DNA of 64,000 nt from the NCBI RefSeq assembly GCF_003334355.1, contig NZ_QOWP01000020.1. One strand, written 5' to 3'. Positions 750-7,498 of this stretch are shown piece after piece. The translations under genes and the position numbers were made by a program. This DNA comes from Escherichia coli. Its GTDB lineage: Bacteria; Pseudomonadota; Gammaproteobacteria; Enterobacterales; Enterobacteriaceae. The first letter of the stretch is position 1. Each line of letters opens with the position of its first letter. The notes under the pieces were generated by a model. It worked only from the letters and a program-made list of their open reading frames with translations. It searched no databases and was not told the origin of the DNA.

Positions 750-2027
750 CTATGGTTTTTTATTAGAATCTTCGCCACTAAATAAATTATAATAAATTGA
801 TTTTATTAGATATCTGTCAGAATCTATATGGTCAGCACGAGTAGCATGCTCTAATGTTTCAAATGCTAGGGTTTGTGCGGCTTCAGCAAAAATTCCAGGC
901 CAACCCTTACTCAGCATCGACAGTCCTTTAAGTACCCTTATCTGAATTTCCCTCATACTGGCACCATCGCGCGCAACAGGTGAGAAAAAGTCTTCAAGTA
1001 GATCGTTATTCTGAAGTGGTGCAACATGTACAGAAGGATATTTCACTTCTATTTCATCAGATTTATTCTGCGCGTAAGCGGAAAGTATACGTACACCTCT
1101 GCCAATGACATCAATGGCGGTTCCAGGATCGTTCACTGCGGGGGAAAGGGCTCGGCAGGCTATTTCGGCCATGACGCTAAGACAAAATCGGGGGTCCTGA
1201 GCAAATGAACGTACATCCGAGACAATAATCGTCTCAAGTAAATCGGTGCTGATTGATGACTCCTGGCCCTGACTCAGGTACAAAACTGGCGTGGACGGAT
1301 GTATGAAACTGCCCGGCTGCGCCACGAGGTATACATGACGGGGATCATTGGTCAGCAGCTTGCTGAGTTTCACCATATCAACATATTCAACATAGCCAAT
1401 CTTTTTCGGATAAACTGCAACCGTTCCTTTCGGCTGTTCATTGTTCTCAAGCCATGGATATCCGCCGAGACAGGGATTTCTTGCTCTCGCAATAAATGTT
1501 TCGATGGCCGCCTGTTCTACTTTTGCCGTTGTCTCACCAACCCTCCCCAGAGAGGTCAAATGCTGTATCCAGCGAAGCAATGTGATGAGGATTAAGGCAA
1601 TGACAACCAGTGTTACAATGAATAAAATGACTCTCCCCCTTTCTCCATAAGCTCCCATATTGAGGGCAATAATCCCTACCAGACTGAAGAGAAAAGAACC
1701 GATGAAGGTGGCCAGTACATTTTGTGTGGTGACGTCTTCAACAACTAAACGAGTAGCTCTGGGAGTCACATTAGTAGTGGCTGAACCGTAGGCTGTGACC
1801 ATGATGCTCAGCGAAAATGTGGTCACTGCCAGCATACTCGATGCCAGTATGTTCAGAATGTTATCGACTGCTTCCGCACCAACCTTCACGGAAACCGACT
1901 CAGGTATCATTGATTTAAAAAGAATTGATAAAAGGGCCGTTATTATTGCGACAATTGCGAATAACGTTGCCCTGAACCATAGTTTTTTAAATGTCTGCTT
2001 CAGCATCCATTTCCAGCGTGAAATCAT
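750..2027 (-). CDS. DUF2254-like integral membrane protein (four N-terminal TM helices plus soluble C-terminal domain)
   Basis: ORF 750..2042; start moved to the second ATG (MISRWKW) which has a GAGGG RBS about 8 nt upstream. Four hydrophobic segments in the first ~150 aa. Gene is AT-rich compared with neighbours. Confidence 0.55.
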   Translation of the reverse strand: MISRWKWMLKQTFKKLWFRATLFAIVAIITALLSILFKSMIPESVSVKVGAEAVDNILNILASSMLAVTTFSLSIMVTAYGSATTNVTPRATRLVVEDVTTQNVLATFIGSFLFSLVGIIALNMGAYGERGRVILFIVTLVVIALILITLLRWIQHLTSLGRVGETTAKVEQAAIETFIARARNPCLGGYPWLENNEQPKGTVAVYPKKIGYVEYVDMVKLSKLLTNDPRHVYLVAQPGSFIHPSTPVLYLSQGQESSISTDLLETIIVSDVRSFAQDPRFCLSVMAEIACRALSPAVNDPGTAIDVIGRGVRILSAYAQNKSDEIEVKYPSVHVAPLQNNDLLEDFFSPVARDGASMREIQIRVLKGLSMLSKGWPGIFAEAAQTLAFETLEHATRADHIDSDRYLIKSIYYNLFSGEDSNKKP

Positions 2028-2052
2028 TCTGCATTCCCTCATATTGCAGCCG

Positions 2053-2081
2053 GGATAAATAAATGCCGCCTCTGTGGCGGC
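2053..2081 (-). terminator. Candidate intrinsic terminator/attenuator between the BCCT gene and the DUF2254 gene
   Basis: GCCGCC-N5-GGCGGC hairpin (2065-2081) followed on the minus strand by AUUUAUUUAU, starting about 10 nt after the BCCT stop. Confidence 0.4.
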
Positions 2082-2090
2082 ATGTTGCTG

Positions 2091-4094
2091 TTAACGAACC
2101 AGATGCAGGAAGTGCAGGTGTTTTTCGTACTGGTCCAGTATGTCATTAATCAGCTGTTCCTGATTCCAGCCCATTACATCATAATTTTGGCCGCCCTCTT
2201 TGAGATAGACTTCAGCGCGATAATATCGATGTTGTTCACTCTGCTGCTCATCATTATCCAGCGCAGCGAGCGCGAAGGTCGGTGAGTTATACCCGCGAAG
2301 CCTCACTTCATATATATAATTCAGCTCGTTGCCCAAATCGACTTCAAGGCGAATACGATCCTCGGCGGCGTCACTGATGTGGCTTATCGTTCCCTGCTTG
2401 TTAAGTTCCTCCTGAACCAGCGTCATGGCGGGTTGGATAATGTCGTCCATAAAACGTTTCACAAGAGAGCGCTTCGGCAAATACGCGATATTGCGTAACC
2501 TTCTCTGCCAGGGAATTGGGTTACGTGCAGCCGTAGGAGCAATAGTCGCCATGCTAAGGCTTTCACGCTTGGTCAAATCCCGACGCAGGGCTTTTAACAG
2601 TCCGTATATGGATATTAATAAGATAACTGAGAAGGGCAATGCACTCGCTATCGTTACGGTTTGCAACGCACTCAGCCCCCCTGCGATCAGCAGGGCAATA
2701 GCAACAACGCCCATGAGCGATGCCCAGAAAATTCGCTGCCAGACGGGCGTGTTTGCCACCCCACCTGATGCCAGAGTATCCACAACCATTGCCCCCGAAT
2801 CAGCAGACGTTACAAAGAAGACGATGACCATCGCCATTGCAATGAATGACAGCACGGAAGAGAACGGGAAATGCTCCAGGAAATTAAACAGGGCAAGCGC
2901 AACATCCTGCTGAACGGTATTGGCGAGGTCAGTGGCGCCCTGGTTCATGATGAGATAGATGGCGCTGTTTCCAAACACCGTCATCCACATGAGCGTAAAG
3001 CCGGCGGGAACAAACAACACGCCAGTCACGAACTCACGAATTGTCCTGCCGCGGGAAACGCGTGCAATGAACATACCTACAAACGGCGACCATGAAAGCC
3101 ACCATCCCCAGTATAATAATGTCCAGCCCCCCAGCCAGTTGCTCGACTTGGGTTCATACGCGTAAAGGTTGAACGTTTTACTCACCAGTTCCGACAGATA
3201 ACCACCCGTATTTTCCACAAATGACTTCAGCAGAAGCACAGTGGGACCCAGGCACAAGACCAGCGCCAGGAGCAACACCGCCAGGCCCAGATTAAGCTCA
3301 GACAGGATGCGTATTCCCTTGTCCAGGCCGGACACCACCGAAATCGTCGCTAACCCCGTGATGACCACGATCAAAATGACCTGTACCGTTTCATTGATGG
3401 GCACGCCGAAAAGATGGTTCAAACCGGCATTCACCTGCAATACACCGTAACCCAGCGATGTTGCAACGCCAAAGACAGTGCCTATCACGGCGAAGATATC
3501 AACCGCGTGGCCTATAGGCCCGTAAATGCGATCGCCGATAATGGGATAGAGCGCAGAACGCAGCGTTAAAGGCAGACCGTGACGGTAACTGAAAAAGGCC
3601 AGAATCAGCGCCACGATGGCATAAATTGCCCATGCGTGCAGACCCCAGTGGAAGAACGTCAGGCGCATGGCTTCCTTCGCTGCCGCAACGGTCTCTGGAG
3701 TGCCGACAGGTGGCGAAAGATAATGCATCACAGGTTCGGCAACGCCAAAGAACATCAGGCCGATCCCCATCCCTGCCGAAAAAAGCATCGCGAACCAGGA
3801 GTGGTAGCTGAAATCAGGCTGCGCATGGTCTGGGCCCAGCTTTATATCACCGTAACGTGAGAGTCCAAGGAACGTGACGCTCAGTAAAATCAGGGCCACA
3901 GCAAGTATGTAGAACCAGCTGGCATTCGTGAAGATTTGTTGCTGAAGTAGTTTAAAATTTTTGTCGGCGACATCCGGGAATACGGCGGCAAAGGCGACAA
4001 GAAGGAAAATTAGCAAAGCAGATGTAAAGAATACCGCTTTGTTAATCTGGCTTGTAGACTTCTTTGGGGTTGTATCATTTTCACTCATAATCAT
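2091..4094 (-). CDS. BCCT-family transporter (betaine/carnitine/choline type), BetT-like with long C-terminal cytoplasmic extension
   Basis: 667-aa ORF. Conserved BCCT motifs (GWTLLYWGWWLSWSPFVGMFIARVSRGRTIREF) and overall similarity to E. coli BetT recalled from memory; clearly not identical to betT, caiT or yeaV. Confidence 0.8.
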   Translation of the reverse strand: MIMSENDTTPKKSTSQINKAVFFTSALLIFLLVAFAAVFPDVADKNFKLLQQQIFTNASWFYILAVALILLSVTFLGLSRYGDIKLGPDHAQPDFSYHSWFAMLFSAGMGIGLMFFGVAEPVMHYLSPPVGTPETVAAAKEAMRLTFFHWGLHAWAIYAIVALILAFFSYRHGLPLTLRSALYPIIGDRIYGPIGHAVDIFAVIGTVFGVATSLGYGVLQVNAGLNHLFGVPINETVQVILIVVITGLATISVVSGLDKGIRILSELNLGLAVLLLALVLCLGPTVLLLKSFVENTGGYLSELVSKTFNLYAYEPKSSNWLGGWTLLYWGWWLSWSPFVGMFIARVSRGRTIREFVTGVLFVPAGFTLMWMTVFGNSAIYLIMNQGATDLANTVQQDVALALFNFLEHFPFSSVLSFIAMAMVIVFFVTSADSGAMVVDTLASGGVANTPVWQRIFWASLMGVVAIALLIAGGLSALQTVTIASALPFSVILLISIYGLLKALRRDLTKRESLSMATIAPTAARNPIPWQRRLRNIAYLPKRSLVKRFMDDIIQPAMTLVQEELNKQGTISHISDAAEDRIRLEVDLGNELNYIYEVRLRGYNSPTFALAALDNDEQQSEQHRYYRAEVYLKEGGQNYDVMGWNQEQLINDILDQYEKHLHFLHLVR

Positions 4095-4336
4095 TTATTC
4101 CATTAATTAAATCCGCACTGGATAGAAGGTACTACCTCTCACAGAGTAGCAAAGTTCAACTGGCTATGCGGGGTTAATCGGAATGCATGGTGGAATGAGT
4201 GCCGATACAAATCATCCTATATTCTAAGGAGTTTTAAGTTACTCAGCCTGCCAATTACTGGGGCATTTAATTTGTATGATCTGTATCAAAGCTGGGATAT
4301 AAGTTAAGTGAAGTATATTAGGCACGAATTACCAGC

Positions 4337-4373
4337 GTCTGCTCTTGGCACAAAGCGGACAACCACGCTAGCT
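4337..4373. repeat. Imperfect ~37-bp hairpin-containing repeat, copy B (GTCTGCT-CTTGGCACAA-AGCGGAC)
   Basis: Pairs with copy A at 664-700; the two copies bracket the BCCT-DUF2254 gene pair. Confidence 0.5.
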
Positions 4374-4428
4374 CTACCCTGTGCCACAAAATGTCAATTT
4401 GCATCTGAACTAATGCACTTTAATCTCG

Positions 4429-4851
4429 TCACTTCAATAAATACCGAACATCCCCCTGATAAAACGACAATATGCGCTGCATAACTTCGCTCTTCCGGCA
4501 CTCGCGACAGATTATGTTTAGGCGACTGTCGTAGCGACGTATTTCTCCGTCAGGTAATGACCAGATAAGGTCCGGATCAACCACAACCGGTTTCTTCAGC
4601 TTTGCCCTCGATAATTTTTTGCGGGCATTTTGCCAGTCTTTACGAGCCTGTTCAGACGGGAATAACCCGTAGCCAGAATTGTATACATCGCCACTGGCAA
4701 CCAGCTCTCTGGCCAGAACGCTCATCAGATATCTTGTTGCCCCAGTTTTAGCTTCCAGTTGTCGTAACGTCTCGCGCCCACTCTGGCGTACGAGTTCAAG
4801 AACCTGCCCTTTAATTTTTTCCCGCTCTTCTTGTGTAAAAACTTTTGCCAC
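4429..4851 (-). CDS. Hypothetical prophage protein, 140 aa, basic, possible winged-helix segment
   Basis: ORF directly downstream of the ydaU-like gene; no Walker A motif, so not the DnaC-like ydaV expected at this position in K-12 Rac. No family recognised. Confidence 0.45.
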   Translation of the reverse strand: MAKVFTQEEREKIKGQVLELVRQSGRETLRQLEAKTGATRYLMSVLARELVASGDVYNSGYGLFPSEQARKDWQNARKKLSRAKLKKPVVVDPDLIWSLPDGEIRRYDSRLNIICRECRKSEVMQRILSFYQGDVRYLLK

Positions 4852-4891
4852 AAGCCCTCCTGAAAATTACCTCATGACCAGAAATTAACAC

Positions 4892-5968
4892 TTACCCCCT
4901 GAAGCCCGGCGGAATTTCGTTATCCGGTTCAGAAATATGATTCACACAACGCTGGTTGTTCGTGCCGCTTACCGGGAGCAACCAGGGGTTCTCAAAATTC
5001 CGGTCCGGTCCAAAAAACGTCGTCGCTCGCTGAACAAATTCCGTTCCCGTTTTCCCGGTAGCCGCCAAGTATCTTGCGTAACGCCTCACGCCATCCAGCA
5101 TGGCCTCTGGTGGCACCCCCTCGCGTAATCTGGCCTTCCAGGCACTGAAAGCGGATTTCTTCGGGTTTGCCCCAGCACGCAACGGGTACTCCCGCCAGAC
5201 CTGTTCGAACACATCCGGATAATCCACTCGTCCCACAGACTGCCCGGTGTTTTCCGGGACTACCCGATCGGCTTCCCGCTGAATGGCGGAATCGGCTTCA
5301 GGCTGCTGCAGTTGGTGTGATTGCTCCGCCCTTGCGGTCATCACCTGCTGCACAGCGCCCGAATCGGCTTTCAGCGCATACGCTGAATCGGCTTCCGGTG
5401 TCGTGCCTGCTGGCTGACCAAGATTGACGGTCTGAACATCCCCTGCCTGGTTCGTGGCGTTTTTTACGCCATGGACCATAGTGTTTTGATCTTCTTGATC
5501 TGTATCTTTATCTGTATCTTTATCTGTCGTGACTCGTCGTGACATGTGCGTGACATTTCGTGACGCGCCGTGACAATCGCCATTTTGTTCCCGCTTTCTT
5601 TCCCTCTCTCGCTGCGCCCTCTTGCGCTCTGCAGGAGATTTTGCGGTTTGCGAAATATTGCCGTTGTCCTCTTTAAGCACCTGGCGTTTTTCCCATCCAG
5701 TGATTAAATCACCATCAAGTACCCGCCCCTGCATCGTCTGCAAAATTGAATCAATTACCTCTTCTGTCACGTCGAGCGCACTTGCCAAATCTTCTGTCGT
5801 GACATCAATGTGACCTCGCGTGACATTTCGTGACGCGCTCACCAGGAGGTGGATATACACTGCCATCACTGTTGCAATTGGCTGTCCTGACACCCTGGCA
5901 ATTGTTCGCCACTTAGGGTCATTTGGCATGTCATGCCATAATCTGAGCCAGGCGTTAGCCATACTCAC
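4892..5968 (-). CDS. ydaU: YdaU-like prophage replication protein (DUF1376-like N-terminus, DnaT-like C-terminus, repeat-rich acidic linker)
   Basis: 358-aa ORF next to ydaT as in K-12 Rac; contains internal DNA direct repeats. Longer than the 285 aa I recall for K-12 YdaU, so treated as ydaU-like. Confidence 0.55.
   Translation of the reverse strand: MSMANAWLRLWHDMPNDPKWRTIARVSGQPIATVMAVYIHLLVSASRNVTRGHIDVTTEDLASALDVTEEVIDSILQTMQGRVLDGDLITGWEKRQVLKEDNGNISQTAKSPAERKRAQRERERKREQNGDCHGASRNVTHMSRRVTTDKDTDKDTDQEDQNTMVHGVKNATNQAGDVQTVNLGQPAGTTPEADSAYALKADSGAVQQVMTARAEQSHQLQQPEADSAIQREADRVVPENTGQSVGRVDYPDVFEQVWREYPLRAGANPKKSAFSAWKARLREGVPPEAMLDGVRRYARYLAATGKTGTEFVQRATTFFGPDRNFENPWLLPVSGTNNQRCVNHISEPDNEIPPGFRG
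5526..5576. repeat. Iteron-like cluster 1: five CGTGAC direct repeats at 10-11 bp spacing, preceded by an AT-rich TATCTT/TATCTG repeat tract (5489-5527)
   Basis: CGTGAC at 5528, 5538, 5549, 5559, 5569; read directly. Confidence 0.6.
5797..5836. repeat. Iteron-like cluster 2: four (C/T)GTGAC direct repeats at 10-11 bp spacing, plus an inverted GTCACG at 5767-5772
   Basis: Repeats at 5798, 5809, 5819, 5829; the 19-mer GCGTGACATTTCGTGACGCG is shared with cluster 1. Confidence 0.6.
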
Positions 5969-6033
5969 CTCTTTTGATACCGAATCTTTTTACTCACAAA
6001 TTGCCGGAAGTGATCCGGTATGAATATTGCGCG

Positions 6034-6459
6034 TCAATGCACAGCCACAATATTTCCTGCAGGGCCACCACGATTCATCTGGTTGAAACCAGCGATCGCC
6101 ACTGCGACAAAATCATCAGCGTCTCTCACCAGTCGTTCCCGCGTCTCCACTAGTTCCCGAAAATAGGCTGAGCTATGGCTGCGCATTCGGGCCACCAGCA
6201 GAGGTGGCATTGCTTTTTCGATAGCTGGTAACAACGCCTGAATTTTTTCAACTGCATCAGGGGTGTCTTTCTCTACCCAGCGGAAAATTTTCTGGGTATT
6301 GCGAGCCAGGGCTTCCGGATGGCTGTCGTCATACAGTTCTGGGAACGTCATACCCAGTTCAAAATAAGCCCTGGTTATTTCAGCTGCCGGAACTTTTTCA
6401 CCGTCCGGATGCGCCCAGGCATTCATCGCCATGCGGATGTGTTCATGCTTGATTTTCAT
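6034..6459 (-). CDS. ydaT: Rac prophage YdaT-like protein (toxic when derepressed)
   Basis: 141-aa ORF at the K-12 ydaT position, overlapping the upstream ydaS by 17 bp. Confidence 0.65.
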   Translation of the reverse strand: MKIKHEHIRMAMNAWAHPDGEKVPAAEITRAYFELGMTFPELYDDSHPEALARNTQKIFRWVEKDTPDAVEKIQALLPAIEKAMPPLLVARMRSHSSAYFRELVETRERLVRDADDFVAVAIAGFNQMNRGGPAGNIVAVH

Positions 6460-6724
6460 GAATCAAGCTCCTAGAAAGTGGTTGTGTTAACATTTTGGTA
6501 TCTTCCAGCTCGGGCCAAATATTCATCCAATCAAAAGGCCTTAGTTGCTGACGTGTAACTTCACCATTACTGGCTCGCTCAATAAGGACACATAACGATG
6601 CCCCTAACACTTGACCTTTACTCAATGCCTTTCTTAGATAACCGATGCTGGTACCACACTCGCATGCAAACATACGCTGTTCATCTGACGAAAGAGAATT
6701 GAGAAATATTCTTAATTCTTCCAT
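6443..6724 (-). CDS. ydaS: Rac prophage YdaS-like HTH protein
   Basis: 93-aa ORF divergent from racR, first gene of the ydaS-ydaT pair. Confidence 0.6.
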   Translation of the reverse strand: MEELRIFLNSLSSDEQRMFACECGTSIGYLRKALSKGQVLGASLCVLIERASNGEVTRQQLRPFDWMNIWPELEDTKMLTQPLSRSLIHENQA

Positions 6725-6752
6725 AGCTACTCCTTAGTAAACACAGCAAAGA

Positions 6753-6828
6753 ATACCCATAGGTAAACAAAAGTCAATACCCACAGGTTGTTTACCTTGC
6801 AGTAATCGCATCTATTATTTACCTATGG
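6753..6828. promoter_or_regulatory. Divergent racR / ydaS-ydaT control region with repeated ATACCCATAGGTA-type operator half-sites
   Basis: ATACCCATAGGTAAAC (6753-6768), TACCCACAGGTTGTTTACC (6778-6796) and its inverted copy TATTTACCTATGG (6816-6828, overlapping the racR start). Confidence 0.5.
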
Positions 6829-7244
6829 ACAAATATGAATTTAGACGACAGCAACTCATCAAAATTCGTGATGAGAAATGCGATGGTAAAGCGGTTAACG
6901 TGGCCAGAAAGATCGGGCGCGAGCCTTCTTATGTATCAAGAATGTTGTACCCAGAGGGGAAAAAGGGAAAAAAACGGATCGCTGATGATATGGTGGAGAT
7001 TATCGAAGAGTCCTTTGGGTTACCCCGGGGATGGATGGATGGTATCGTTTCATCATCAACGAACACAGCCTCCAGTTATGAAACAAGGGTTCTAACGCCA
7101 CGACAACGTATTTTTTTAGATCTCTTAGACGAACTGCCAGAAAGTGAAGCGGATAACTTATTAAAAACTCTTGAAGAGAAAAAACAGTATTACAATATGA
7201 TCTACGAAGAAATCCGTAAAAAGAAAGCACAAAACGCATCATAG
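6825..7244 (+). CDS. racR: RacR-like prophage repressor (XRE/HTH-like)
   Basis: 139-aa ORF divergent from ydaS-ydaT, at the K-12 racR position; no in-frame upstream start before the stop at 6738. Confidence 0.6.
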   Translation: MDKYEFRRQQLIKIRDEKCDGKAVNVARKIGREPSYVSRMLYPEGKKGKKRIADDMVEIIEESFGLPRGWMDGIVSSSTNTASSYETRVLTPRQRIFLDLLDELPESEADNLLKTLEEKKQYYNMIYEEIRKKKAQNAS

Positions 7245-7285
7245 CTCACCAAACAACTAGTCACCAGTTAAGACACCGTAAAAAG

Positions 7286-7324
7286 TTACCCATGGGTATT
7301 TACTTTTTAAATACCTATGGGTAT
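7286..7324. promoter_or_regulatory. Operator-like palindromes downstream of racR and upstream of ydaG-ydaF
   Basis: Perfect 12-bp palindrome TACCCATGGGTA (7287-7298) and 14-bp near-palindrome ATACCTATGGGTAT (7311-7324), same motif family as the racR upstream sites. Confidence 0.5.
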
Positions 7325-7498
7325 CCTTCTTTTCATACCAACCCACCCCGCCCCACAGAATGCAGGGCAATACTTCGAGTTACCAGGCAGTGGTCAGGGG
7401 TTAAGTAGCCAGCCCGAGGCGTAAGAACATGACGGCGGGATTCAAATTTTGCAGTGCAGCAGTTAGTTCCGCCACCCGGCGTTAAGGGGAGAGATAAG

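Follow-up and report, generated by a model that had tools for sequence, protein, structure and literature searches.

The stretch of Escherichia coli DNA analyzed here (the window, 64,000 nucleotides) carries a Rac-type prophage in which a gene for a replication initiator protein lies between Cro/CII-like genes and a Ren-like gene (Table 1). The initiator gene is RefSeq CDS WP_001262352 in strain CP53. Its product matches the PHROG family phrog_3729 "replication initiation protein" with an E value of 2e-257, relatives of the protein carry the NCBI name "phage replisome organizer", and the PHROG "replisome organizer" families match it at E values of 6e-6 and 2e-4. The 356-aa gene is also present in two deposited phage genomes, vB_EcoS-689R5 and Tritos; the protein is 98.9% identical to the vB_EcoS-689R5 copy, and its N-terminal 144 amino acids are identical to those of the Tritos copy. 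The N-terminal domain has a helix-turn-helix and a β-hairpin wing, i.e., the fold of DnaD-NTD-like or CRP-like winged helix-turn-helix domains, with the recognition helix at residues 67–77, and is presumed to be the iteron-binding domain. Pfam searches with the whole protein and with an alignment of the N-domain gave marginal matches to PF09681 and HTH_Crp_2 and nothing else; PF09681 (Phage_rep_org_N) aligns end to end but weakly (E value 0.24 for the whole protein and 0.015 for residues 1–129), and at E ≤ 0.001 it is found in 0 of 62 members of the initiator family. The C-terminal tail matches PDB entries 6aep, 2ru8, and 9zbt, and NCBIfam detects the DnaT tail alone in the initiator (DnaT positions 156–179 of 179); a 2026 preprimosome paper assigns no role to this DnaT C-terminal tail.

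Table 1. Coordinates of the initiator gene, its neighbors, and the repeat features discussed in the text (positions in the window)
Feature	Position	Strand	Remarks
Replication initiator gene	4892..5962	-	open reading frame with translation, 356 aa; encloses the whole predicted origin
N-terminal winged-helix domain, coding sequence (aa 1–95)	5678..5962	-	
Last 20 codons (QRCVNHISEPDNEIPPGFRG)	4895..4954	-	near-identical to the C terminus of the host primosomal protein DnaT
DUF977/Ren-like gene, downstream of the initiator	4429..4851	-	
YdaT/CII-like gene, upstream of the initiator	6034-6459	-	
Cro/YdaS-like gene, upstream of the initiator	6443-6724	-	
Four copies of AAGCCGAT(T)	5266..5394	-	encode PEADSA / LKADSG / PEADSA / READRV
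Hyphenated inverted repeat (hairpin)	5448..5478	.	13-nt arms, 5-nt A/T loop, perfect core TGGCGT/ACGCCA
AT-rich tract (ACAGATAAAGATACAGATAAAGATACAGATCAAGAAGATCAAA on the gene strand)	5485..5527	-	28% GC; 74% purine on the gene strand
Iteron cluster B, five direct GTCACG	5528..5574	-	linker, aa 130–146; spacing 10/10/11/10
Inverted iteron, single copy	5766..5771	+	codons D-V-T; about 30 nt downstream of cluster A
Iteron cluster A, three GTCACG and one GTCACA	5798..5834	-	spacing 10/10/11; codons for a loop of the N-domain, aa 43–56

The YdaT/CII-like and Cro/YdaS-like genes (6034..6724) are the equivalents of the lambda rightward operon, so to speak, and transcription crosses the origin region; a promoter-like site, found by consensus match only, is on the minus strand at 6777–6750. 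A RacR-like repressor maps to 6825–7244. On the other side, the DUF977/Ren-like gene occupies the slot which P and then ren hold in lambda, and a helicase-loader gene of the P or DnaC type after the initiator is absent in the prophage. The gene order around the initiator is the same in phages Tritos and vB_EcoS-689R5, likewise without a loader gene, and some homologues of the initiator are followed by lambda P, DnaC-like, or DnaB genes. The prophage itself is a cargo-laden and apparently tail-less Rac-type remnant, with transporter and regulator cargo in place of late genes. Sequence matching the module is found in 2,699 of 5,426 complete E. coli genomes, i.e., about half.

The most conspicuous feature of the initiator gene is two clusters of the hexamer GTCACG. 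An earlier note on this DNA, made from the letters alone, had described five copies of (C)GTGAC in one cluster and four in the other at 10–11-bp periodicity, and both clusters are found as described. Read on the plus strand, CGTGAC of cluster B starts at 5528, 5538, 5549, 5559, and 5569 (spacing 10, 11, 10, and 10), which is gene nt 389–435, codons 130–146; cluster A has CGTGAC at 5798, 5819, and 5829 and the five-base GTGAC at 5809, is 130–170 nt from the start codon inside the coding sequence, and has no adjoining AT-rich tract. The two clusters share sequence exactly, as the note had seen, over 21 nt rather than 19 (5548–5568 = 5818–5838, GCGTGACATTTCGTGACGCGC). Across the whole window GTCACG is not enriched (32 observed versus 29.6 expected); nine of the 32 copies, however, fall within 307 bp where 0.11 would be expected (Poisson P 6e-15). 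The note had also held that the repeats create duplicated peptide segments; this is right for ASRNVT, which occurs twice in the initiator, but the hexamer is translated in all three frames (as CH, SR, and VT), and the copies of cluster B alone read in frames 1, 2, 0, 2, and 0. No DnaA boxes (≤1 mismatch) are present in the initiator gene, and an Rfam scan of 4300–7400 returned nothing relevant. We consider cluster B as the presumed core origin iterons and cluster A as probably an accessory set.

The AT-rich tract that the note placed beside cluster B is indeed there: its 40-mer 5484–5523 is the least stable of the gene and within the top 0.4% of all 40-mers in the window, and the tract, which contains three 12-nt units and two GATC sites, is presumed to be the DNA unwinding element. 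E. coli alleles differ in its length by steps of 6 or 12 nt, and the homologues have after cluster B a tract of the form (C/T)AGA(T/G)A(C/A)AGA despite a differing encoded peptide. Mosaic junctions fall at this tract, where N- and C-modules are exchanged. Two further features, the hairpin beyond the tract and the single inverted iteron, were absent from the earlier note. The hairpin has a DNA folding energy of −8.7 kcal/mol (z −2.75), is found after the tract in 40 of 76 homologues versus 5.8% of control windows, and is kept in Shigella phage 75/02 Stx, where the loop-closing pair has switched from T-A to A-T by compensatory change. A scan calls it terminator-like on the plus strand; we reject the terminator reading, given its poor T-run and its recurrence as a palindrome on the origin side. 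The numbers of promoters and terminators called in the scan are at chance level as such. By analogy, the hairpin is the third element of the predicted origin and the counterpart of the lambda ori palindrome.

A degenerate repeat that was said to recur about four times is also present, with three exact copies and one single-mismatch copy of AATCGGCTT at 5266–5394 and one further exact copy elsewhere in the window. It was proposed as part of the origin, and here we disagree. The GAATCGGCTT repeats are not iterons because all four are in a single reading frame, their spacing (24/72/24) is not helical, and they are part of the C-terminal module; we therefore reject them as a second iteron class and read them as an in-frame peptide repeat of that separate module. 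The C-terminal module with these repeats is common to phage 75/02 Stx, whose counterpart differs in its N-domain and lacks GTCACG. That phage shows a similar two-cluster pattern built on another motif.

The layout is conserved well beyond E. coli. A first scan of viral contigs returned only E. coli copies with identical N-domains, which inform on alleles and not on divergence, so distant members of the family were used as query in a second scan. A phased pentamer layout, with two to nine adjacent pairs, is found in 77 of 82 distinct homologues; flanking segments used as controls almost always have 0–2 adjacent pairs, and base-shuffled copies never more than two. The spacings are dominated by 10 bp (261 cases), followed by 11 (48), 20–21 (41), and 12 (20). 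The core is lineage specific (GTCACG, CGAACGC, GGAACGC, GTAACGC, GCAACG, GTGACG, and GAAACG) and follows the relatedness of the N-domain, which is 57% identical between sequences with the same core versus 46% for different cores. The GCAACG type is found, for example, in Ralstonia phage Firinga. Cluster B spans all three reading frames in 58 of 77 homologues. Cluster A is found in 49 of 77 and missing from the other 28. The extended core, by inspection of consensuses, is the same for clusters A and B in each two-cluster locus; please note that the pentamer shared by the two is partly built in, since the search used a single pentamer to define both clusters. Homologues from Pseudomonas, Aeromonas, Enterobacter, and Neopusillimonas have the inverted iteron at this same place in the gene (nt 193), and an inverted copy of the own lineage pentamer occurs in 23 of 77.

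We compared the E. coli, Pseudomonas 5399, and Aeromonas pAEv1818 genes (about 70% amino acid identity) and considered only codons of conserved amino acids: within the hexamers nine of 10 are codon-identical, versus eight of 51 outside (Fisher P 1.2e-5). Judged from these alignments, synonymous sites within the hexamers are frozen and the constraint is on the DNA rather than on the encoded peptide. E. coli alleles differ at four spacer sites and at one hexamer site, and one allele has six cluster A copies, with seven amino acids inserted. Linker peptides differ among homologues, while the hexamer and its 10–11-bp phasing persist. Recent recombination of one DNA segment is excluded because the protein identities of the homologues are 32–70%.

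Taken as a whole, and on the evidence of sequence and comparative anatomy, this Rac-like lambdoid prophage very probably has the segment 5448–5834 as its replication origin, within the gene for its own initiator. The initiator reading fits the winged-helix N-domain, the PHROG name, and the slot between cro/cII-like and ren-like genes. The core of the earlier proposal, a lambdoid origin inside an initiator gene, is strongly backed by the comparative evidence; its details need three corrections, on the descent of the gene (see below), on the GAATCGGCTT repeats, and on the hairpin and inverted iteron that had been missed. From the anatomy and its conservation, which are the observed part, we infer the following mechanism. 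The N-terminal winged-helix domain would bind each GTCACG core, and because the cores lie 10–11 bp, i.e., one helical turn, apart, the bound proteins would line up along the same side of the helix, with an O-some-like complex at cluster B as the result. The strain from this complex, together with transcription from the cro-side promoter through the gene, would open the purine-rich tract of 28% GC. The hairpin-forming inverted repeat, on the side of the tract away from cluster B, would bound the bubble or act as a loading or priming signal. The C-terminal module, which encodes no P or DnaC of its own and ends with the DnaT-tail copy, would then recruit the host DnaB–DnaC or primosome machinery. 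Cluster A and the inverted copy would be an accessory site for the same protein, probably either by looping to cluster B or by control of initiation or of expression.

Whether the predicted origin still works in this strain is a separate matter, which qualifies the main reading rather than replaces it. The origin may be unused in the present strain because the prophage is a cargo-laden, apparently tail-less remnant, and it is a real though minority possibility that the segment is an origin by descent and a silent relic here, in an element that is defective, permanently repressed, and loaderless. The transporter and regulator cargo takes the place expected for late genes, the initiator is not followed by a P or DnaC gene, and in K-12 one study saw no Rac replication upon lambda infection (PMC3945230). 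Against this, the initiator gene is intact, and most of the retrieved E. coli prophage copies show no change in any of the nine iterons, in the tract, or in the hairpin; moreover, the 356-aa gene occurs in the deposited phage genomes within the same module, likewise without a loader, and about half of complete E. coli genomes have matching sequence.

An improbable explanation is that the hexamer arrays are sites at which the initiator or another regulator controls expression or copy number, either as an autorepressing roadblock or through handcuffing like that at P1 incA or P4 crr, with the true origin elsewhere in the prophage. Cluster A would suit such a role, being within the coding sequence with an inverted partner, without an AT tract beside it, and dispensable in the 28 homologues mentioned above, and SPP1 G38P likewise binds two separate sites (PMC5737612). 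Cluster B speaks against it: this cluster is nearly universal, the low-stability purine tract always comes directly after it and the hairpin often follows, and the three together make the full lambda and SPP1 origin layout at the same gene position; moreover, no other iteron-plus-AT-tract arrangement was noticed in the examined part of the prophage. Very improbable is that the repeats are by-products, with no DNA function, of tandem peptide duplication (ASRNVT etc.) in a low-complexity linker, as the double ASRNVT, the exact 21 nt common to both clusters, and the neighboring DKDT and PEADS repeats, which do behave as peptide or slippage repeats, might suggest, for the hexamer occurs in three different frames, its synonymous sites stay frozen between proteins that are about 70% identical, it keeps its phasing where the linker peptides of homologues differ, and the cluster A and B cores co-vary among lineages.

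Within the origin reading, we put forward more tentatively, and with rather more doubt than confidence, that the origin of this widespread initiator family is bipartite and self-encoded, with cluster A and its inverted copy located in the codons for a tolerant loop of the DNA-binding domain and co-evolving with the iterons 230 bp downstream. Changes in the copy number of cluster A may lengthen or shorten this loop of the initiator, and clusters A and B could pair via bound initiator, by looping or handcuffing. If true, such pairing would link initiation with how the initiator gene is transcribed and translated. The conserved tetraloop hairpin beyond the unwinding tract could, in this reading, act as a signal for single-strand loading or priming. 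To our knowledge, a self-encoded bipartite design is undescribed for lambda or SPP1; it may be general because phage 75/02 Stx has two clusters of its own kind.

What the analysis offers is a sequence-level prediction of the cis-acting origin for a module which is carried by isolated temperate coliphages and by about half of complete E. coli genomes. A rule for finding such origins is suggested as well, namely G-N-N-A-C-G cores in phase, next to them a purine-rich tract, and after it a hairpin, which may also predict initiator specificity and whose scope is a large, mostly unannotated initiator family of Proteobacteria phages. The rule may be of use in mapping incompatibility or replication interference between co-resident prophages of the same iteron type, in accounting for the mosaic exchange of N- and C-modules with junctions at the tract, and in picking fragments with which to assay the replication of Rac-type elements.

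The K-12 Rac module ydaU–ydaV, the site of oriJ, has the same prophage backbone and the same slot after ydaS and ydaT, and the gene had been called ydaU-like on first reading. The name does not hold: BLASTP finds in common with K-12 YdaU only the last 19 residues (E value 8e-6), which end in the same ...IPPGFRG tail, and a low-complexity KDTDKD tract. The K-12 protein has another N-domain (DUF1376), and the DnaC-like ydaV which is present there is absent in the window. K-12 ydaU does contain a AATAAAGATACAGATAAAGATC tract after a small repeat cluster, followed by a C/G palindrome; the repeats, however, are (A/G)TGTTCAAAC, two direct copies 33 bp apart and one inverted. We found no fine mapping of oriJ in the literature searched. 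By sequence comparison, the two genes are non-orthologous replacements in the same Rac slot, and we reject K-12 ydaU and oriJ, which the note had put forward for comparison, as an orthologue test because the proteins are non-homologous apart from the tail; the absence of GTCACG from K-12 ydaU therefore refutes nothing. Plasmid iteron origins such as RSF1010 oriV also have phased iterons bound by their own initiator, an AT-rich segment, and ssi hairpins. Their iterons are usually 17–22 bp and outside the rep coding sequence, and no homology with the window origin is claimed.

The oriL of Bacillus phage SPP1 also resembles the predicted origin: short direct repeats of the GAAACGACA type, which fit the G-N-N-A-C-G pattern of the window, are repeated at about 11 bp in the middle of gene 38 and followed by an AT-rich unwinding element (repeats and tract at gene-38 nt 360–460). 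That oriL is bound by G38P and is sufficient for replication was shown experimentally (PMC5737612, PMC6316719). The organizer G38P binds two separate repeat regions (PMC5737612, PMC6316719), the second of which, oriR, is about 13 kb away (PMC6316719), whereas here the second cluster is 230 bp upstream in the same gene. SPP1 also encodes its own loader and helicase; the window module does not.

The predicted origin is also much like lambda ori. Both are within the linker-coding part of the initiator gene, at O-gene nt 349–504 in lambda versus nt 389–515 in the window gene, in the gene context cro, cII-like, initiator, and ren-like. In both, the iterons are followed by an AT-rich tract with many purines on the coding strand and, after it, by a palindrome whose loop is 4–5 nt; in the lambda record, the iterons are at O nt 349–433 and the palindrome has 12-bp arms and a 4-nt loop. 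The differences are in the details. Lambda has four 18-bp iterons 20–24 bp apart, with internal dyad symmetry by eye, whereas the window has five direct 6-bp cores every 10–11 bp, of which the core alone is conserved and the spacers vary. The window has no P gene, and its second cluster and inverted copy in the N-domain coding sequence have no counterpart in the annotated lambda ori. The initiator has no match to Pfam Phage_rep_O (lambda O), and hhalign of its N-domain against SPP1 G38P indicates no homology (probability 0.1%). The analogy with lambda and SPP1 thus rests on architecture, because the N-domain is not detectably homologous to lambda O or to G38P. On this architecture, the predicted origin is a fresh example of the well-known lambdoid design rather than a novel type of element, and it leaves the general picture of how lambdoid origins function unchanged.

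The earlier note's proposal of a lambdoid-type origin lying inside its initiator gene is right in substance; its ydaU orthology and its inclusion of the GAATCGGCTT repeats among the iterons did not hold. This is a known kind of origin, an additional example of the classical layout. The GTCACG repeats are real, and although the hexamer shows no enrichment window-wide (32 observed versus 29.6 expected), nine copies fall within a 307-bp stretch, against an expectation of 0.11 (P 6e-15). The stretch shared by clusters A and B is an exact match as claimed, but is 21 nt long and not a 19-mer. The AT-rich tract beside cluster B was also borne out, while the inverted copy and the hairpin had been overlooked. 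No 40-mer of the gene is less stable than 5484-5523, which also ranks among the least stable 0.4% window-wide.

Features of the proposed origin region and its surroundings in the window
Feature	Position	Strand	Content
Initiator gene, 356 aa	4892-5962	minus	contains the repeats
Cluster A	5798-5834	gene strand (minus)	GTCACG x3 + GTCACA x1
Inverted copy	5766-5771		GTCACG
Cluster B	5528-5574	gene strand (minus)	GTCACG x5, spacing 10/10/11/10
AT-rich tract	5485-5527		28% GC, 74% purine on gene strand; codes for DKDT
Hairpin	5448-5478		DNA fold -8.7 kcal/mol, z -2.75
AATCGGCTT repeat	5266-5394		four copies
DnaT-like tail	4895-4954	minus	QRCVNHISEPDNEIPPGFRG, last 20 initiator residues
Cargo at the trkG place of K-12 Rac	750-4094		BCCT-family transporter and others

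As judged from sequence comparison, the repeats are constrained as DNA and not as peptide. The 10-bp step moves the reading frame (1, 2, 0, 2, 0 for the five hexamers of cluster B), and therefore the same hexamer is translated as CH, SR and VT. Pseudomonas phage 5399 and Aeromonas phage pAEv1818 keep both clusters, the inverted copy and the following tract, with linker peptides that are unlike. At positions whose amino acid does not change among the three genes (E. coli, 5399 and pAEv1818), the identical codon is kept at 9/10 codons in hexamers versus 8/51 outside (Fisher P 1.2e-5), and among 57 distinct E. coli alleles cluster B has four variable positions in spacers versus one in hexamers.

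The same architecture was found across the family. A viral-contig scan that used distant N-domain relatives as seeds yielded 80 loci, 32-69% identical, which together with other homologues made 82 distinct sequences; 77 of them carry a phased pentamer (at least two adjacent copies 9-12 bp apart within the gene's first 600 nt), most with 3-9 adjacent pairs, whereas flanking segments almost always had 0-2 and base-shuffled copies never more than two. The spacings are 10 (261), 11 (48), 12 (20) and 20-21 (41). Cores are lineage-specific (GTCACG, CGAACGC, GGAACGC, GTAACGC, GCAACG, GTGACG, GAAACG) and fit a general pattern G-N-N-A-C-G, and iteron type tracks N-domain relatedness. In 58/77 homologues the copies of cluster B are spread over all three frames. 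Both clusters are present in 49/77, with the same extended core in each by inspection of the printed consensuses; the pentamer common to both is partly a search artefact, because one pentamer defined the two. In one E. coli allele (GCA_012627985.1; locus L169, 3115-3205) cluster A has grown from four to six iterons, inserting seven residues (KCHGVSL) between helices 29-45 and 56-63, in a predicted loop of the DNA-binding domain; the loop is therefore a tolerant carrier of DNA sites, and changes in iteron number are paid for in protein length.

In the inspected homologues cluster B is directly followed by a tract of the form (C/T)AGA(T/G)A(C/A)AGA..., with A+T above the gene-wide level. The peptides it encodes are not the same (DTDT, ETET, DKDK, EKRREE), and the pattern is therefore maintained as DNA. 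Among E. coli prophage copies (L009-L088) the tract is length-polymorphic in 6- or 12-nt steps, which explain most of the observed protein lengths (352-360 aa) and fit slippage during replication of the (GATAAAGATACA)n repeat. In the 60 nt that follow the tract, a perfect hairpin (stem at least 6 bp, loop 3-6 nt) occurs in 40/76 homologues versus 5.8% of 1,520 control windows (P 2e-29), lying about 0-40 nt after the purine tract (L089-L168). Stems are lineage-specific and tetraloops mostly TGAC, TAAA, TAAC or TATC; phage 75/02 Stx retains the hairpin of the window, in which the pair closing the loop has undergone a compensatory change.

The 356-aa gene is, by its protein matches, the initiator: it hits phrog_3729 'replication initiation protein' (PHROGs, E 2e-257) and, more weakly, 'replisome organizer' and 'DnaD-like helicase loader' families, and NCBI names its relatives 'phage replisome organizer'. 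It is not a ydaU orthologue, as K-12 YdaU (DUF1376) can be aligned only at a KDTDKD stretch and at the final 19 residues (...IPPGFRG); with this limited similarity, and the DnaC-like ydaV of K-12 absent from this prophage, the Rac backbone has had its replication module exchanged. The protein is a mosaic: residues 1-138 share ~70% identity with Pseudomonas and Aeromonas phage proteins that have different C-termini, and residues 158-356 share 63% with 'primosomal protein I' of Shigella phage 75/02 Stx, whose N-terminus differs. As this homology break (residue ~158) comes right after the tract, the tract may also be a recombination junction between the two modules. The GAATCGGCTT repeat is present in four copies, much as described, but these were ruled out as iterons: the four AAGCCGAT(T) copies, spaced 24/72/24, keep a single frame (PEADSA, LKADSG, PEADSA, READRV) and belong to the C-module that 75/02 Stx also has. 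They are a peptide repeat, not tied to the iteron-binding domain. The C-terminal tail is near-identical to the extreme C-terminus of DnaT (PDB 6aep, 9zbt), as is the end of K-12 YdaU (L002, 12918-12977) to that of this host primosomal protein. The tail is found both where the module includes a DnaC-like gene (75/02 Stx, K-12 Rac) and where it lacks one (the window, Tritos), which suggests mimicry of a DnaT interaction; a 2026 preprimosome paper assigned no role to the DnaT C-terminal tail. Many NCBI entries for the protein are 'partial', ending at contig edges; assemblies apparently often break at this gene, perhaps owing to several co-resident prophages sharing parts of it.

The window is E. 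coli chromosome with a Rac-like prophage, and 1,077 bases around the proposed origin are 100% identical to many complete genomes (match in 2,699/5,426 genomes). In strain CP53 the order, in the direction of initiator transcription, is ttcA, intR, xisR, rcbA, ralR, recT, recE, racC, ydaE, kilR, sieB, ydaF, repressor, Cro/YdaS-like regulator, YdaT-family protein, the 356-aa 'hypothetical protein', a DUF977 protein and cargo (BCCT transporter and others). The cargo (also L001, 4947-11197) lies between the ren-like gene and hokD and comprises the transporter and a DUF2254 protein, with genes for a LysR regulator, a gamma-glutamylcyclotransferase and an MFS transporter lying farther along. In two deposited phage genomes, Tritos and vB_EcoS-689R5, the 356-aa gene recurs and the DUF977/ren-like gene again comes next, without a loader.

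We propose that the winged-helix domain would bind the phased cores on one helix face, forming an O-some-like complex on cluster B, whose strain, together with transcription from the cro-side promoter, would open the purine-rich tract. The hairpin could mark the bubble boundary or serve as a loading or priming signal, the C-terminal module would act via recruited host helicase-loading proteins, and cluster A may be an accessory site for looping or control.

The initiators of 75/02 Stx and PhiR5_2, with an unrelated N-domain, apparently have two clusters of their own (L004, 2180-2225 and 2440-2530; L175, 580-625 and 838-945): repeats of the AAGGGGCTTC type, 10-11 bp apart, in the early part of the gene, and two inverted GAAGCCCCTT(T)CA just upstream of a (CAGGAA)n tract and the shared hairpin. 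Lambdoid initiators in general may have such a two-cluster design. K-12 ydaU (L002, 12505-12660) has two (A/G)TGTTCAAAC copies 33 bp apart plus an inverted copy, then AATAAAGATACAGATAAAGATCTAAAAACAGATC, then a CCCCCGGGGG palindrome, a plausible position for the Rac origin oriJ.

The lambda record annotates four iterons in gene O, then ACACAAAAGACACTATTACAAAAGAAAAAAGAAAAGATTATTC, then the palindrome GTCAGAGAATTC-TGGC-GAATCCTCTGAC, at O nt 349-504; the three parts here lie at nt 389-515 of the initiator gene, and the palindrome and the homologues' hairpin take the same place after the unwinding tract. In SPP1 gene 38, repeats of the GAAACGACA type recur about every 11 bp at nt 360-415, and an AT-rich tract comes after them; this region is oriL, bound by G38P and sufficient for in vitro replication (PMC5737612; PMC6316719). 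Given these like arrangements, the layout here is the classical one. It differs from lambda in its short phased cores, unrelated winged-helix domain and absent loader gene, and in a second iteron cluster placed inside the N-domain's own coding sequence.
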